A stretch of 64,000 nucleotides of DNA from Promethearchaeota archaeon. Its GTDB lineage: Archaea; Asgardarchaeota; Lokiarchaeia; Sigyniarchaeales; SOKP01. This document shows, in pieces, positions 3,001 through 30,147 of this stretch. Position numbers and translations under genes: made by a program. The DNA lies in the NCBI GenBank assembly GCA_016839555.1, contig JAEOUA010000012.1:224001-288000 (forward strand), written 5' to 3'. The notes beneath the pieces were generated by a model. That model did not search any database. It had not been told where the DNA came from and saw only the letters and a program-made list of their open reading frames with translations. The stretch's first letter is position 1. Every line of letters starts with the position of its first letter.

Positions 3001-3636
3001 ATAGTTTCCGCCCCAATTAAAGTTCGGTGCTGTAGAATAGACATCGGTCCCATGAAATGTGTGAAAATAGTCTCTATTAATGTCTCTATAGTAAAAATAC
3101 CTCAACCCTGAATCCATAGTATTATCAATGCTACTTGCCATTTCTGCATCAAGATTTCCAAAATACATATAAATAGTTTCTATTTCGCTTTGAGATATTT
3201 TTGGAATTTTTACCCATATTGTACTTTTTTCACCCGAAACTTCCATATCTTCTATCCAAAAATCAAGCTCTACACCTGAGGAGTTTGCAAAGCGAATATC
3301 TTTTCCAGATTCATCAAGGTATCCCTTTTCATACCATTCTGTAAGGTTGATATCAATTTGAACTTGATAATCAGTTAAATCTACTCCTGATGATATATTT
3401 ATTGGAATTCTGTATCGCCAACTATAATTCCACCATACATCTCCTCCATTTCCTTGGCTTACAGAAATCGGATTATTGTCAGAAAAATTCTGATTGCCCG
3501 TTAATAACTTATTGGATTCTGAGGTATCTCTAAAATCTAATGAAATCATTACCAAAAAGGGAATAAACATTATAACGAAAAGAATCAATGTGGCTATGAT
3601 TTTTTTTTTTCTAATATTTTTAAATAAAGAATTCAT
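1..3636 (-). CDS. Large secreted/cell-surface protein (partial, runs off left edge, >1200 aa): signal/TM segment, DUF2341-like domain with inserted PA14 domain, then beta-rich Ig/carboxypeptidase-regulatory-like repeats
   Basis: Absent from the ORF track (no stop in window). ATG at 3636 reads MNSLFKNIRKKKIIATLILFVIMFIPFLVM...WWNYSWRYRIPINI...DIRFANSSGVELDFWIE...IWVKIP...IYMYFGN (DUF2341 pattern), then SIRWEGWI...FWIYTDDGSKLWINN...KYEWYEWGG (PA14 pattern). The same frame is open at base 1 (...TYTVTFTVAKKYYLD). Confidence 0.85.
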   Translation of the reverse strand, partial: MNSLFKNIRKKKIIATLILFVIMFIPFLVMISLDFRDTSESNKLLTGNQNFSDNNPISVSQGNGGDVWWNYSWRYRIPINISSGVDLTDYQVQIDINLTEWYEKGYLDESGKDIRFANSSGVELDFWIEDMEVSGEKSTIWVKIPKISQSEIETIYMYFGNLDAEMASSIDNTMDSGLRYFYYRDINRDYFHTFHGTDVYSTAPNFNWGGNYIILNGNPWENLSDYVSIRWEGWIANDGDGGHIFWIYTDDGSKLWINNTVIMDKWYDQSPHEHYSTPYIFSSIIPIKYEWYEWGGQAVSQLGWTPPGGSKTYPIPGSHLWCRKYSETEPTVSIGEAEPGLASIKVNAFDLYGYPIPNANVSIYNYTAGESYLISGLTNDTGSILFEDLGFMPLNLTFNVSITSDSGLTRIINTTSDPIIIETIPIDETYTEINLICDASTHILNVKDVDGVPVDTAWVEVGNSTSPFIQNCSINSIGNATFIWINDTTNYNYNYTVYYEDSDYEYPSSKIVLATGNFTDPTDRYDNVIVNMTTIVFMVHELNDIEATVSNVKLEFKENGTGNPIVDLVTNTSGQATLRWFISSELSTYDVGANGNYTLRAYFGGIKQFGVNTPISATYWSYTFNFATQENFNISLNVDPTFFQTELIDLNPTIYPSIKQGAQFKIRVLFNITKYDNDINHPYVGPNTTDSIKYTVIGVGRVFSGNLYPEEEMGIGYYYGIIDTRLRDMDIGTYTITITASKTQFQSPSPKYFYLTVQKNDLLVNQSENDNSMQTTYWNEDVNMSIKPYGQYEEFLTIEDNIFNNNNEFQFSIPDASNVWNLTELELNIDNINWTADSLFANIIIEDPWGNNHTFTQINSSLNVPIGDNLGYCHDIIIPKEYLNKKSPTTNNIFNFKLYGTFNNAVDVTAQAKLVRDQIDVQYTQFNITDSISIPYSGEGWAIKNITFNIYNCKDKTDWSDINPEDVNLVIRANQNFTATNRFTYSVANNGVGKGLLSIDNITLFPYSNQFSFSVEADNPNVIFDVNMSVKYIQYFYEYYNLENITQTDTILDISYSQSFQIIADDLGWQDMQTPILYFDNINNGTQYFQASEVNMKITIAGQEFSVADSVGGGYFLMDQLLAFSKNTIYSVSIETSQPVNYTVRFEADYSRSVFKDLKNDVSSVTYLVGPLSGSVSYNSNQEYYTQRINTTALEVRTYTVTFTVAKKYYLD

Positions 3637-3826: not shown

Positions 3827-4462
3827 TTATTTCATTTTTTCTAATATTAAAAAAATTTTTCGTTTTTTAGGATTATTCGGATTATCTATTACATAACCAC
3901 CATTAAAATCTATTTGTGAATTAATTAGAGCTTTCATTTTATCCATCAATTTGAAATTTTTTGGATAAAAGTGAAAGACAATTTTGCAGTTAAATTTTAA
4001 AATACTATAAAACGATGAAATTAACTCAATAAAATCATTTTCCATCGTTTTATCTGAAATATCTCTATAAATCCATTGTAGAGCAGAGATAGAAATGATT
4101 CCATTAAACATTTCAGGTTTAAATGGAGATCTACACATATCTGCAACAACAGGATTGATATCCTTCATTTCATAATAGTATAAAAATTGAGATATAATAT
4201 CTAAAGCAACTACTTTATAACCCAATTCTTTTATAAAAAATGAAGCAAATCCAGGGCCACATCCGGCATCTAATAATAAAGAAGATTTTTGGTTAATATC
4301 CAATAATTGTAAAGCTCTTATAGTAATTTTAGTTTGAATTCTCTGCATATTTTTGGAGAGTGAATAGTCTTCAATTCTTTCGGCTGTAAAATAATCACTC
4401 ATATTTTTGTAGAGATCTTCTGGTCTTTCCTTTTTTACATCAAATAAGAATTCATCGTTCAT
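3827..4462 (-). CDS. Bud23/WBSCR22-like SSU rRNA m7G methyltransferase (class I SAM-dependent)
   Basis: RPE near N-terminus, IQTKITIRALQLL, LLDAGCGPG, PFKPEMFNGIISISALQW, FHFYPKN and FNGGYVIDNPNNPKKRKIFLIL match yeast Bud23 motifs in the same order. Confidence 0.8.
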   Translation of the reverse strand: MNDEFLFDVKKERPEDLYKNMSDYFTAERIEDYSLSKNMQRIQTKITIRALQLLDINQKSSLLLDAGCGPGFASFFIKELGYKVVALDIISQFLYYYEMKDINPVVADMCRSPFKPEMFNGIISISALQWIYRDISDKTMENDFIELISSFYSILKFNCKIVFHFYPKNFKLMDKMKALINSQIDFNGGYVIDNPNNPKKRKIFLILEKMK

Positions 4463-19872: not shown

Positions 19873-20427
19873 ATGAATAAAAAAACTACACATTCTAATA
19901 AAATCGAGGCTATTATTAGGGAATATTTATTAGATGAAGGTATTTTAAGAAAAAAATTACAAAATAACAACATTGAATTTGGCTTTCAATTTGTATTTCC
20001 TCCTATCCATCCTCAAGAGGAATTTAAAAAAAGTCAATTTATGGTAGTTTTTCAACCGAAAAATAAGAATGATTTACTTATTGTTTCAATCGGAACACAA
20101 ATTAGTCCTGCTCATATCGAAGCATTACAAAAGAATAAGGATAAAGAACTGCTATTTTTTAAAGAGTTAAAAAAGTTTTTTCATCTAAAAAACGTATTTT
20201 TTTACTTAGATATTAAAAATCATCGATATGAAGTAAGTGATCAAATCTTTTTAAATGAAAATTACATTTCGAAAAATAATTTTTTTCTGCTTATACGTAG
20301 AATTTTTAATATTCAAGCATATACTAATCTAATACTATTAGATTTTTGTTCTGGAGAATTAAATTCTGAAAATTATGATAATTCAAGTAAATATGACTCG
20401 GGATCGCATTTTTCCCTTTATTCTTAA
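19873..20427 (+). CDS. DUF2299-like archaeal protein
   Basis: IREYLLDEG, VFQPKNKNDLLIV, ISPAH, IFL...ISKNNFF. Confidence 0.6.
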   Translation: MNKKTTHSNKIEAIIREYLLDEGILRKKLQNNNIEFGFQFVFPPIHPQEEFKKSQFMVVFQPKNKNDLLIVSIGTQISPAHIEALQKNKDKELLFFKELKKFFHLKNVFFYLDIKNHRYEVSDQIFLNENYISKNNFFLLIRRIFNIQAYTNLILLDFCSGELNSENYDNSSKYDSGSHFSLYS

Positions 20428-25769: not shown

Positions 25770-26093
25770 TTAAGTCTTTAAATGTTTATTTTAATAAAAA
25801 ATTTAAGGAGATTTCTTTTTTCTATTTTCATTTAATAATAAAACGATTAATCTAAAAGAATAATAATCATATTTTTTTAAGATCCTAATTTTAAAATCTT
25901 TTAAATCTATTCAAAGTAATGATTTATCTTGATCATGTAGTTTTCATTTTACAAAAATAATTATTATATTTTATAACAAAAAATAAATTATTATTTTAAT
26001 TTCCTAAAACAATGGAGATTTTGATTATAACATGTTTAATTTAACAATTAAAATATCAAATAAATAAAACAAAAAATAAAAAAGTTTGAAATT

Positions 26094-28094
26094 ATGTCTG
26101 ATAATCAGACCAAAGATGTTATTAGAGTAGGAGTATATATTTGTGAGTGAGGAGTGAATATAGGTGCTACTATAGATTGCGAAGCTGTGAAAGATTTTGC
26201 TGAAACTCAACCAGATGTATTTATAGCAAGAGTGAATAAATTTACATGTAGCGATCCTGGTCAAGCGATTATTAAAAATGATATCTTGGAATTACATTTA
26301 AATAGAATCGTAGTTGCTGCATGTACACCAAAGATTCATGAGTCTACTTATCGAGCAGTACTAACTGAAGCAGGATTAAGCCCATATTATTTTCAAATGG
26401 TAAATTTAAGAGAGCAATGTTCTTTTGTACATTCTAATAGGAAGGAGGAGGCAACAGAAAAAGCGAAGAATTTAGTTTTAGCGGGAATAAATCGTGCTCG
26501 AGAATTAGAATCAATTCCTAGAAAAGAGATACCCATAGAACATTCTGTTCTTATCGTAGGAGCAGGGATTGCTGGCATGAATGCTGCTTTAGATTTAGCG
26601 AACCAAGGTATTAATGTATATCTTGTTGAGAAAGAACCGACAATTGGAGGAAAAATGGCCCAGTTAGATAGAATTTTTCCAACAGATGATTGCGGTATAT
26701 GAGTATTGGCACCAATTATGGTGAATACCTCAAAACATCCGAATATTAATTTATTGACTTATAGTGAAGTAGTTGAATTTAGTGGGATTACTGGTAATTT
26801 TAATGTACGGATAAAGAAAAAACCTCGATATGTTGATGAAGAAAAATGTACTGGTTGTGGATTATGTACCACAAAATGTCCTATGAGTGTTCCTAGTGAA
26901 TTTGATCGAGGAATTGGAGAGCGCAGTGCAATATATATTCCATTTCCCCAAGCAGTTCCCAAGTTTGCGTTAATTGATAAGGAAATGTGCATTGAATGTA
27001 AAAATTGTGAGCGAACTTGTCCTGCAGAAGCGATTAATTTCGAGCAAGAAATAGAATATCTGGATGTTAAAGTTGGATCAGTGATTATTGCTACTGGCTG
27101 GGACGAATACCCCATCTGGAAAACAAATGAGTATAAATATGGCATTTATCCTGATGTGATAACCCAAATAGAACTAGAGAGAATGTTAAGCCCAATAGGC
27201 CCTACTGATGGACATATTTATAGAATATCAGATGGTAAAACACCAAATAAAATAGCAATGATTCAATGTGTGGGGTCAAGAACCTTAAGAGGGAATCGAT
27301 ATTGTTCTGCAGTGTGTTGCAATGTTGCCTTAAAAAATGCTCAGTTATTAAAACAAGAATATCCAGATATGGAAATAATAATATTTTATATTGATATCCG
27401 TAGCCCTGATAAAGGTAATGAAGAATATTACAGAAAGATTAGGGAATCTGATATTATTTTTATTAAAGGAAAACCAGGAGATATCAAATTAATTGATGAT
27501 GGAACTATGAGATTATTTTATGATAATAGCTTATTAGATGAAGTTACTCATTTAGATGTAGATTTATTAGTATTATCTACGGGAATTATTCCATCAAAAG
27601 GTACCACTGAAATGGTTAAAGTAATGGGTTTAGAAGAAGGTCCTGCTCAATTTTTATCGGAAATTCATGGGTGTTTAAAACCTCAAGAAACTAAAGATAT
27701 GGGAATATATATATGTGGGTGTGCTGCCGGACCAAAAAGTATTCCATATTCAGTTTCAACAGCTTTAGCTGCTGCGAGCAAGGCTTCAACACTTCTTTCA
27801 AAGGACACTATTTATCAGGAATTAATAATAGCCGAAGTTGATAAAAATCTATGTATGGGATGTCATCGGTGTGAAAAAAGTTGTTTTTATGATGCAATTA
27901 AAGTAGGAGAAGATGATATAGCACTCGTTGATGAACTAAAATGTAAGGGTTGTGGAGTATGCGTTACGGTTTGTCCTGCTCGAGCAATAGATTTGAAATA
28001 TTACCGAGATCATCAATTTGAAGAGGAAATAAAAGGAATTGGTGCAACAGAGATTATTGAAATAAAAAATATGGAGCCTGAAATTAAAAAATAG
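26094..28094 (+). CDS. hdrA: Heterodisulfide reductase subunit A-like flavoprotein; selenoprotein with two Sec (UGA at 26148-26150 and 26700-26702), 666 aa
   Basis: One frame from ATG 26094: MSDNQTKDVIRVGVYICE-U-GVNIG...GAGIAG...FPTDDCGI-U-VLAPIM...QCVGSR...CSAVCC...; both UGA sit at conserved Cys positions; the ORF track splits the gene into two pieces. Confidence 0.92.
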
Positions 28095-28115
28095 TTGAAC
28101 TAATGGTGATAAAAT

Positions 28116-28535
28116 ATGTCAATAAAAAATAATAGAAGAAACATAATAGCATTTGGTTGTGACAAATGAGGGTATTCCGTGGCTGATTTGACAGGTACTA
28201 CAAGAAAAACGTATACAACAGATTTCCGTATGATTAGAGTTAGATGTACTGGGAGGATTGGTATTCATTTAATAATGAACTGCTTTCTAAACGGTGCTGA
28301 TGGAGTTGCAATTATCTCTTGAAAGAAAGGAGAATGCGATTATGGGAATGGGAACTTAATAGCTAATGAACACGTCAAAATTCTAAAGAAAATATTTAAT
28401 CATCTGGGAATCTCAGAAGACAGAGTTCAGCAATATTTTTGTTCTGCTGCTGAAGTAGAAAATTTTTTAAATTCTATAGAAGATATTTCAAAAAAAATTC
28501 ATTCACTCCCTCCATTACCAAAAAAACCGAAATGA
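28116..28535 (+). CDS. mvhD: MvhD/VhuD [2Fe-2S] subunit; selenoprotein with two Sec (UGA at 28167-28169 and 28320-28322), 139 aa
   Basis: Absent from the ORF track. MSIKNNRRNIIAFGCDK-U-GYSVADLTG...IRVRCTGRI...GADGVAIIS-U-KKGECDYGNGN...LGISEDRV...CSAAE...LPPLPKKPK; GGTGA SD 6 nt before the ATG. Confidence 0.92.
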
Positions 28536-28592
28536 ATGACTCTTTCGAAAAAATATTAGTCGAAAGATGACTTACCTTGCAAAGGTATTCGG
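28527..28592 (+). ncRNA. Eukaryote-type (Loki) SECIS element
   Basis: ATGAC (28536-40), TCTTTCGA, loop AAAAATATTAG, TCGAAAGA, TGAC (28568-71): AUGA/GA non-Watson-Crick core, perfect 8-bp helix and apical A-run; closed by CCGAA/TTCGG with an extra hairpin TACCTT-GCA-AAGGTA. Confidence 0.85.
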
Positions 28593-28647
28593 AAAAAAAC
28601 AATTTTTTGAAATATTTAAGATAAAATTAATAGCATGACAAAGAAAT

Positions 28648-30147
28648 ATGAATAAAAAAGTAGATATCTCTTGGAATTATCTTGAGAATGTTACAGAGGC
28701 TCTAGACTCTTATAAAATCCGAGCATTTATCGATGCTAAGGATGAAATTATTGATTGTGGGGTTTATAATGAATATCAATTTTTTGAAATTCTTTTTAAA
28801 ATGATTGATGAGGAAAAATTAAAATTTGAGTTATATAATTATTTAAAAAATAATCAAGATAATGGATTTTCAATTATTAAACAATTTTCTGAAGAAAAGA
28901 AAATTAAAATAAAAAAAGTATTAAGTTTACTTGAATTGTTAGAGATTGAAGGCTTAATTTTCTTAGAAGATATTAATAAATCCAATCAAAATGAAGATAT
29001 AAATGAAATTTTTACCAAAAATTTTGAAGATATTCTAATTAAAGTGAAAAAATCTTCTCTAAAAGAGTTAAAAACTATATATGAACCAGTAAAAGTAATT
29101 TTCAACTCAAATATTTGTGCTGGATGTGGAATTTGTGCTGGGATCTGTCCAATGGATTGTATCAATATCCAAAATGGTTATGGTGAAATAGATGAAAATA
29201 AATGTATCAGATGTGGGTTATGTTATTTTGTTTGCCCAAGATCATTTCTTCCAGCTGAAATTTTAAATATTTATCAAAACAAAACATCTAATATCAAAAA
29301 TAATAAAAATCTTGGACCATATTTAGAAGCATATGTCGCAAGGACAAAAGTTAAAGAAATAAAAGCAGCTTGCCAAGATGGGGGGGTTTCAAGTACTTGT
29401 ATCCTTTATTTATTAAATACCAATGAAATTGATGCGGCTTTAGGAGCAAAAATTGGACAAAATCCATGGTGTCCAGAACCCACAATAATCAAAAATAAAG
29501 ATGATATAATCAATTCTGCTGGAACAAAATATGTTAATAATCCAAATTTAAAATTATTAAATAAGTTCAATCTTGAAGATAAGAAAATTGCGGTAATTGG
29601 AGTACCATGTATGATGCAAGCTTTATTGAAATCTAAAATTTACAATATTAATATTCCTTCCATAAATTCTGTTAAATACCGTATAGGAATATTTTGTATG
29701 GAATCTTTTTCTTATGAACAAGGATTTTTAAAAATATGTGAGAAACTAAATGTAGATTTAAGAGATATAAAAAAAACGAATATAGATAAAGGTAAATTTT
29801 TAATTCATACAAATAATGATGATATATTAAGCATTCCAATTAAAGAAATAAATCATTTAGCCAGAGAAGATTGTGAAGTTTGTTTTGATCTTACTTCTGA
29901 ATCTGCTGATATTTCTATAGGTTCGATCGGTGCACCCTTAGGCTGGAATTCTGTATTAATAAGAACACAAAAAGGAAAAGAATTATTTGAAGCTCTGATA
30001 AACAATGATTTAATTGAATCGAAACCAATAGAAGAGGTTAAACCTGGCTTAGAACTGCTTAAAAAAACCGCCATTGGAAAGAAAAAGAATAGTTATAAAC
30101 ATATTATTAAGAAATTGGAGCAAAATAAAAAAGTACCAATATATTAA
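28648..30147 (+). CDS. FrhB/FdhB-family F420-interacting subunit with 2x[4Fe-4S] ferredoxin domain and N-terminal helical extension
   Basis: CAGCGICAGICP, CIRCGLCYFVCP, QDGGVSS, SAGTKY, GVPCMMQAL, GIFCMESF, CEVCFDLTSESADISIGSIG. Confidence 0.88.
   Translation: MNKKVDISWNYLENVTEALDSYKIRAFIDAKDEIIDCGVYNEYQFFEILFKMIDEEKLKFELYNYLKNNQDNGFSIIKQFSEEKKIKIKKVLSLLELLEIEGLIFLEDINKSNQNEDINEIFTKNFEDILIKVKKSSLKELKTIYEPVKVIFNSNICAGCGICAGICPMDCINIQNGYGEIDENKCIRCGLCYFVCPRSFLPAEILNIYQNKTSNIKNNKNLGPYLEAYVARTKVKEIKAACQDGGVSSTCILYLLNTNEIDAALGAKIGQNPWCPEPTIIKNKDDIINSAGTKYVNNPNLKLLNKFNLEDKKIAVIGVPCMMQALLKSKIYNINIPSINSVKYRIGIFCMESFSYEQGFLKICEKLNVDLRDIKKTNIDKGKFLIHTNNDDILSIPIKEINHLAREDCEVCFDLTSESADISIGSIGAPLGWNSVLIRTQKGKELFEALINNDLIESKPIEEVKPGLELLKKTAIGKKKNSYKHIIKKLEQNKKVPIY

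Follow-up and report, generated by a model that had tools for sequence, protein, structure and literature searches.

One SECIS element for two cistrons: a Loki-type element downstream of mvhD probably recodes four UGA codons of an Asgard archaeal hdrA-mvhD pair

How can the in-frame UGA codons of a gene be read as selenocysteine (Sec) when the only visible selenocysteine insertion sequence (SECIS) lies beyond the stop codon of that gene and behind the whole of the next one? This question is raised by the gene pair hdrA-mvhD in a 64-kb stretch of DNA (the window, the whole stretch that was analysed) from a Promethearchaeota archaeon (C12:224001-288000), whose genome is a metagenome-assembled genome (MAG) of 3.74 Mb in 12 contigs with 29.6% G+C. 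The closest related loci are likewise labelled Promethearchaeota and come from Loki-type Asgard MAGs. Here, we present evidence that hdrA and mvhD are probably expressed from one bicistronic mRNA in which a single 3' Loki-type SECIS recodes all four UGAs as Sec. The features on which this conclusion depends are the following, in window positions.

26094-28094, plus strand: hdrA (heterodisulfide reductase subunit A type), 666 codons plus a TAG stop at 28092-94; the open reading frame (ORF) is open when TGA is read through.
26148-26150, plus strand: in-frame UGA at hdrA codon 19 (predicted Sec), aligned with Cys in the Cys-type paralogues of the genome and in the solved HdrA 9sfi.
26700-26702, plus strand: in-frame UGA at hdrA codon 203, the canonical HdrA Sec site (DDCxxU), aligned with the residue printed X in 9sfi chain A.
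28095-28115, plus strand: hdrA-mvhD spacer of 21 nucleotides (nt), with a Shine-Dalgarno (SD)-like GGTGA at 28105-09, 6 nt before the ATG.
28116-28535, plus strand: mvhD/vhuD, 139 codons (Pfam FlpD, 1.5e-37).
28167-28169, plus strand: in-frame UGA at mvhD codon 18 (predicted Sec), in a Cys/Sec column invariant among the four Sec paralogues.
28320-28322, plus strand: in-frame UGA at mvhD codon 69 (predicted Sec), in a second such invariant Cys/Sec column of the four Sec paralogues.
28527-28592, plus strand: extended lokiSECIS, predicted to form a three-way junction, with core AUGA at 28536-39 and GA at 28569-70 (63.5 bits with covariance model R1).

When the ORFs were read with TGA as a sense codon, the coordinates of both genes, the UGAs, the TAG stop of hdrA and the 21-bp spacing came out as an initial annotation, made from the sequence alone, had given them. 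The identity of the proteins is clear from their homologues. Residues 11-649 of HdrA match the solved HdrA 9sfi/5odc with 702 bits; against the NCBIfam HdrA2 and HdrA models the protein scores 820 and 599 bits, under the full-length cut-offs, since the models also cover MvhD as a fused portion. The window MvhD scores 128 bits against NCBIfam VhuD, below the 215-bit cut-off. In Cys-type paralogues from this genome, Cys stands opposite each of the four UGAs. The second UGA of hdrA occupies the canonical HdrA Sec site that Mariotti et al. 2016 (PMC4989117) place near position 200, and judged from the alignment, the X in 9sfi opposite U203 reads as the selenocysteine of that protein.

The element directly 3' of mvhD has the core, dimensions, loop and position of a lokiSECIS. 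Its helix II (28540-48/28560-68) comprises 9 positions, 8 Watson-Crick pairs and a C.U next to the G.A pairs, and carries an apical loop of 11 nt (28549-59, AAAAAUAUUAG); a stem of 9 and a loop of 11 nt are the lokiSECIS dimensions of Mariotti et al. 2016. The loop has the A-rich first five nt and the final G of a lokiSECIS, and the element starts 0 nt after the mvhD stop, one per HdrA-VhuD pair. For comparison, an alignment of the four Sec-type MvhD paralogues of the genome served to collect 80 related loci, and R1 was built on 57 distinct elements directly 3' of mvhD, the alignment of which is free of gaps. Among these 57, the AUGA and GA columns are invariant or nearly so, as in the lokiSECIS core, and loop positions 3-5 and the last G are invariant. 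Helix II is further supported by covariation: all nine pairs change on both sides, and 92% of cells are paired, versus 38-44% in slid controls. The stem position that adjoins the tandem G.A pairs (kink-turn position 3b.3n; 28540/28568, the C.U, in the window) is non-Watson-Crick in 30 of the 57 elements, and the other eight positions are paired in 93-100%.

The initial annotation had described this hairpin, about 2.4 kb from the first UGA and 55 bp before the next gene, as the only SECIS-like one, and had proposed a covariance-model scan for others. We ran R1, which detects lokiSECIS-like elements only, on the window with filters off. The element scored 63.5 bits (E 6e-12), and the next best match scored 16.6 bits and lies on the minus strand at 20173, 8 kb away; R1 found no second lokiSECIS upstream of hdrA, within it or in the spacer. 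The description thus stands. A strict sequence and pairing pattern gave 8 matches in the 3.7-Mb genome versus 0-2 in ten shuffles; this pattern and R1 replaced a loose regular expression (AUGA/stem/AA/GA) whose 141 matches in the A+T-rich genome were mostly spurious. Two further scans gave the same answer. In the window, no Rfam SECIS family reached its gathering score, and between 25500 and 30500 there was neither a SECIS family at E up to 10 nor any other cis element; Rfam misses even the real element and is therefore unusable for excluding a second one. A scan of 25780-28660 for the methanogen-type GAA_A SECIS, by the criteria of Huang et al. 2024 (PMC11227280) with a G+C-rich upper stem, found none with at least two G-C pairs in that stem, so that a canonical archaeal SECIS is absent from this region; as a positive control, the scan detects both Methanocaldococcus (L023) elements, those of hdrA and vhuD, as well as the one of vhuD in L037.

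These scans bear on an alternative explanation, namely that a recoding signal of some unrecognised type lies in the hdrA leader or coding sequence, for instance close to each UGA, and that the SECIS after mvhD serves mvhD only. The types covered are the lokiSECIS-like, Rfam and GAA_A ones, and two 50-nt windows of hdrA, 26465-26514 and 27400-27449, fold with z of about -3.5 to -3.8. However, these windows, the most stable in the gene, are unremarkable and lie away from the UGAs, and RNAz applied to coding sequences (CDS) plus or minus 200 nt found no structure besides lokiSECIS (Mariotti et al. 2016). The comparison across loci, described below, argues in the same direction, and we regard a separate hdrA signal as unlikely.

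If one SECIS serves both genes, the same layout should recur. Our comparative set consisted of the 69 loci with an R1 match, that is, 65 related loci, the window and three paralogous pairs of the genome. Each of the 65 related loci has exactly one significant R1 match, always directly 3' of mvhD, and no R1 match lies within or upstream of hdrA in any of the 69. The genome itself holds four Sec-type hdrA-mvhD pairs (the window, L001, L002 and L003), each with two or three UGAs in hdrA, two in mvhD and one SECIS after mvhD. Throughout the set, mvhD carries two UGAs, at both sites. Full-length hdrA genes carry two UGAs in 47 loci, three in 14 and four in one, at five recurrent positions (about 19, 52, 77, 203 and 600); by approximate position binning, in-frame TGA occurs 62 times near the position of codon 19 and 64 times near that of codon 203. 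The distance from the first hdrA UGA to the AUGA is 2388 nt in the window and varies only between 2345 and 2407 nt across the 69 loci.

The stop codons add to this picture. We found that hdrA ends in TAA in 38 loci, in TAG in 31 and in TGA in none, and that mvhD ends in TGA in 12 of the 69. TGA ends 13% of long ORFs in the genome, so that 0 of 69 has a probability of about 6e-5 assuming independent loci, which the loci are not. The lack of UGA stops in hdrA is what is expected of a downstream SECIS that acts on hdrA as well; like the one-SECIS rule, it weighs against a separate hdrA signal. The rule is without exception in the 69 lokiSECIS-bearing loci, which may make it useful for an eventual experiment. 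Two candidate elements before or at the start of hdrA were rejected: a weak R1 match upstream of hdrA in Jordarchaeum L016 (25.7 bits) is noise, with no pairing stem and an overlap with the start of a small ORF, and a recurrent GUGA pattern at the start of hdrA in L059, L071 and L078, which forms 7 of 9 pairs and gives no R1 match, is one sequence shared by close relatives.

Are the UGAs of hdrA in fact translated? The TGA codons at positions 19 and 203 are retained in the orthologues L011 and L012, and in comparison with these two, dN/dS (the ratio of nonsynonymous to synonymous substitution rates) is 0.04-0.11 for both segments, the one that follows U19 and the one that follows U203, dS being saturated. 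Strong purifying selection after both UGAs and the retention of TGA indicate that translation continues through both. The UGAs thus lie at Cys/Sec positions of homologues in frames conserved beyond them, as in HdrA and VhuD selenoproteins. These results also exclude termination, one form of a further alternative, in which the hdrA UGAs stop translation or are read without Sec, as Cys or Trp by a near-cognate tRNA. The identity of the inserted residue is not readable from DNA. However, UGA is an ordinary stop in this genome, as its share of long ORFs indicates; both sites lie in Cys/Sec columns, and one is the canonical HdrA Sec site; and TGA is kept across about 60 species, whereas Cys-type paralogues use TGT or TGC. 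We therefore consider a reading without Sec very unlikely.

The genome, moreover, encodes Sec machinery, to judge from its gene content, and is that of a selenocysteine-decoding organism. SepSecS scores 494 bits, above the cut-off, and 190 nt from it lies a tRNA-Sec-like gene with 45.3 bits against the Rfam tRNA-Sec model (cut-off 47). This model was used in place of ARAGORN, which reported no tRNA-Sec and 12 tRNAs in total genome-wide, probably because it misses intron-containing archaeal tRNAs. SelD, with one in-frame TGA, scores 185 bits, above the cut-off; the EFSec candidate (237 versus 242 bits) and the PSTK candidate (160 versus 290 bits) fall below theirs. The other lokiSECIS matches that we examined in the genome all follow UGA-containing genes: two VhuU copies, in which the UGA stop forms part of the AUGA, and a Prx-like gene with a UxxU box are among those that carry the element.

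Recoding of hdrA in cis by the SECIS after mvhD requires that both genes be on one mRNA. The short spacer and its SD motif are typical of internal cistrons and support one transcript indirectly. Alternatively, hdrA and mvhD could be separate transcripts, or the SECIS could work in trans, and there would then be no long-range action in cis across the cistron boundary. The region is very A+T-rich, and promoter-like sequences are possible in it. Yet the spacer, 21 nt here, is 13-14 nt in most related loci, with an AGAGGTG-like motif, and some loci appear to overlap; an mRNA of hdrA alone would contain no SECIS; and in other lineages the two proteins occur as fused, Sec-containing HdrA-MvhD frames (L022, L024 and L045), just as the NCBIfam HdrA2 model spans both, which points to one expression unit. 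Separate transcripts or action in trans are, in our judgement, quite unlikely. The hdrA-mvhD pair, which matches the two parts of fused HdrA2 proteins, can be regarded as a single expression unit that a stop and a restart divide.

Together, these results support the proposal of the initial annotation that one SECIS recodes four UGAs across a stop/start boundary: the same layout is present in 69 loci, and hdrA is translated past its UGAs. Direct support exists for the gene identities, the placement of the UGAs at Cys/Sec sites, translation past them, the uniqueness and conservation of the SECIS and the presence of Sec machinery. We suggest the following sequence of events. One bicistronic mRNA would carry hdrA, mvhD and the junction, and might end at a T6 run at 28603-08. 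The SECIS, a predicted kink-turn element (AUGA...GA, a 9-position stem and an A-rich 11-nt loop) within a predicted three-way junction, would be bound by a putative SECIS-binding factor, which together with archaeal EFSec and Sec-tRNASec would cause ribosomes to read the four upstream UGAs as Sec. Two of these lie in hdrA, 2.4 and 1.8 kb from the SECIS and across the hdrA stop and the mvhD start, and two in mvhD, and a fifth in-frame UGA (28533-35) would serve as the stop of mvhD. From the sequence we infer co-transcription, Sec at each UGA, the factor and the long-range mechanism.

Several points weigh against this proposal. In the only bench test that we found, a Methanococcus maripaludis reporter that carried a minimal Loki vhuU SECIS gave background activity (21 versus 22 mU/mg). 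No SBP2 homologue is known in Asgard archaea (Huang et al. 2024). R1 finds lokiSECIS-like elements only, which leaves room for another type of recoding signal in hdrA. Finally, the first UGA lies 54 nt into the message and the SECIS is made only 2.4 kb further on, a timing difficulty should transcription and translation be coupled. If the proposal is true, SECIS action is independent of reading-frame continuity, with one 3' SECIS serving two cistrons over up to 2.4 kb, and Asgard archaea pair a eukaryote-like recoding signal with operon expression, which bears on the origin of the eukaryotic Sec system.

The sequence around the core suggests a larger structure. In the window, CCGAA at 28527-31, within the last two sense codons of mvhD, can pair with UUCGG at 28588-92 (helix I), and between the GA and the 3' strand of helix I sits a side hairpin (28573-87; UACCUU 28573-78, GCA, AAGGUA 28582-87). 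Unconstrained minimum free energy (MFE) folds contain all three helices in the window and in most loci, and an explicit search found the junction layout in 71 of 71 elements (the window and 70 related ones), including those of VhuU and Prx-like genes (L004, L005 and C9:63227-63278). Helix I is formed by about ten different sequences, among them CCGAA/UUCGG, AUGUGUU/AACACAU, CAUCCUCU/GGAGGAUG, GCCAAAUA/UAUUUGGU, GUUGGU/GCCAAC, CCCAU/AUGGG and GCGAA/UUCGC.

Other analyses recovered the junction less completely. RNAalifold gave all three helices in one paralogue group and helix II only in a larger group, because MAFFT misaligned two flank families there (alignments A3 and A5); for the same reason, pair counting is not fair for helices I and III. 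A second model, R2, built on one flank family, matched the other family over its full length, weakly (16-32 bits) and with noise, and the resulting alignment A7 was left out of the pair counts. An automatic MFE classifier accepted the junction in 43 of 71 elements and was too strict: by eye, a further handful of its rejects show all three helices. With the 3' flank shuffled, 9% of trials reached the real median, and with 3' flanks swapped between helix I families, a helix I of at least 5 bp formed in 33%, versus 90% for real elements. The controls are only moderately clean because A+T-rich flanks pair readily.

The predicted fold resembles the k-junction, a three-way junction based on a kink-turn, found in thiamine pyrophosphate (TPP) riboswitches, whose third helix is in the non-bulged strand (Wang et al. 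2014, PMC4005666). In sequence and predicted secondary structure, the element is compatible with this topology; the lokiSECIS linkers are longer, at 2-6 nt, and the resemblance is one of secondary structure only. We tentatively propose, at slightly less than even confidence and on the basis of these folding predictions, that the functional Asgard SECIS is a k-junction-like three-way junction of about 65 nt, larger than the 35-nt hairpin of existing models, which would be recognised by a putative SECIS-binding factor and would serve several UGAs in two cistrons. In their main texts, Mariotti et al. 2016 and Huang et al. 2024 model the core, upper stem and loop only, and a full-text search of the literature on SECIS with 'three-way junction' returned nothing relevant, the Mariotti supplement being outside its scope. 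If true, the larger junction would explain the inactivity in Methanococcus of the Loki SECIS construct, which apparently held the core hairpin only. Reporter constructs should probably span the whole junction (about 28520-28600), beyond the core hairpin.

The junction also bears on the stop codon of mvhD, a further in-frame TGA at 28533-35 that abuts the AUGA at 28536-39. Read-through of this codon would add just eight residues before a TAG in the SECIS loop. Since the UGA abuts the core, helix I and the predicted kink-turn must already be melted once this codon occupies the ribosomal A site. Likewise, helix I contains the last mvhD codons, so each ribosome that finishes mvhD would unfold the SECIS, which fits a stop UGA that is not recoded. 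In the closest orthologue (L011:3227-3251; 79% MvhD identity), the mvhD frame extends 17 nt into the SECIS and stops at a UAA within the apical loop (GUAAAU); between these close relatives, the 3' end of the mvhD coding sequence thus slides over the SECIS.

Two features follow the SECIS.

28603-28608, plus strand: T6 run, a possible archaeal oligo-T terminator signal, read from the sequence.
28648-30147, plus strand: frhB-like gene (Pfam FrhB_FdhB_N/C; NCBIfam PRK09325, 270 bits, above the cut-off).

A run of T5 or longer lies within 60 nt after the core in 32 of the 69 loci, a raw count with no background rate. The frhB-like gene starts at 28648, 55 nt past the end of the extended SECIS structure (28592), and no SD motif was found at its start in the window. 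Its product has a 140-residue N-terminal extension, two 4Fe-4S motifs and the FrhB N and C domains. We rejected it as a selenoprotein candidate: the sole in-frame TGA of the ORF at 28567-30147 precedes the real ATG at 28648. An frhB-like gene is found 3' of the SECIS in the orthologue group of the window, L011 and L012 only (with an offset of 101-112 nt from AUGA to the frhB ATG in L011 and L012), and more weakly in the paralogues L002 and L003. It is probably outside the recoding unit and may have its own promoter; if there is read-through into it, the SECIS would be intercistronic. The HdrA-MvhD-FrhB module suggests, by homology, an F420-linked, HdrA2-type flavin-based electron-bifurcating unit.

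Beyond the Sec-type pairs, we noted further HdrA-like genes and SECIS variants. The genome holds at least nine HdrA-like genes, with Cys-type HdrA-MvhD fusions (C10:280836-283238, C12:355036-358563 and C10:208461-204991) beside the four Sec-type split pairs; these fusions include rearranged double-HdrA forms of about 1150-1175 residues. The 15 loci without an R1 match are mostly from other lineages (Jord-, Frey-, Sigyn- and Borrarchaeota and Methanococci). In one of them, Jordarchaeum (L016:3893-3990), a longer AUGA...GA element with a UCCCGA/UCGGGA stem and a large apical part follows mvhD and is invisible to R1. Judged from such sequences, the shape of the SECIS differs among Asgard lineages while its position after mvhD is kept. 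Elsewhere in the genome, a 120-codon ORF at C7:6178-6540 on the plus strand (L095:1679-2041) has two adjacent in-frame TGAs (DAGC-U-U-DKF, a CUU motif) and no Pfam family. A lokiSECIS lies downstream of it (C7:6534-6584; R1 40.2 bits), and a ThiS/MoaD-like beta-grasp gene ending in GG upstream (PF02597, 5.5e-8). From its sequence, this ORF may represent a new Asgard selenoprotein family, unlike the seven families listed by Huang et al. 2024.

How does the window compare with known systems? The shared-SECIS arrangement and its interpretation have been known since 2016, and the window is one more instance; the initial annotation was right to caution that the arrangement might already have been noted. 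Mariotti et al. 2016 reported that every HdrA-VhuD tandem has one lokiSECIS, downstream of VhuD, reasoned that the pair is most likely translated from one polycistronic mRNA whose element can support up to six UGAs over about 2 kb, and remarked that this would be unparalleled. They also noted that HdrA always ends in UAA or UAG, whereas UGA is permitted as the stop of VhuD, and accounted for this nearby stop by a minimal-distance rule. Huang et al. 2024 repeated the same inference over more than 400 Asgard genomes, and a 2026 review reports no experiments on the shared HdrA-VhuD SECIS. With the pairs of Lokiarchaeum GC14_75 and of related metagenome contigs in these two studies, the window shares the gene order, a very short spacer, two VhuD Sec sites, a multi-Sec HdrA that includes the canonical site and a single AUGA/9-bp/11-nt-loop/GA element after VhuD. 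To this earlier work we add another genome with four pairs, counts from 69 loci, an analysis of selection and the context of a predicted three-way junction.

The same genes in the same order occur in Methanococcales, where 3' SECIS elements are of the canonical GAA_A type. In Methanocaldococcus (L023), about 270 nt separate hdrA from vhuD, each gene comes with a G+C-rich GAA_A SECIS of its own (3360-3393 and 3915-3948), and HdrA has one Sec. In comparison with the fused HdrA2 (NCBIfam NF040770), the window HdrA corresponds to model positions 1-642 and MvhD to 644-773. Fused forms, including Sec-containing ones, exist in the genome and its relatives; here the two parts are separate cistrons, so that a single SECIS would serve across a stop and a restart.

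Unlike the predicted hdrA-mvhD message, natural eukaryotic mRNAs are monocistronic. With the eukaryotic type I SECIS (Rfam SECIS_1, RF00031), the element of the window shares the 3' location, the AUGA...GA core of a predicted tandem G.A kink-turn, the unpaired A's with which the apical loop begins and action on distant UGAs, the last of these as predicted here. Its helix II is shorter, however, and it has no match to any Rfam SECIS model at E up to 10, so that by model it falls outside these families. Compared with the two-stem eukaryotic SECIS (Huang et al. 2024), the lokiSECIS has a predicted extra hairpin in its 3' strand, between the GA and the closing helix.

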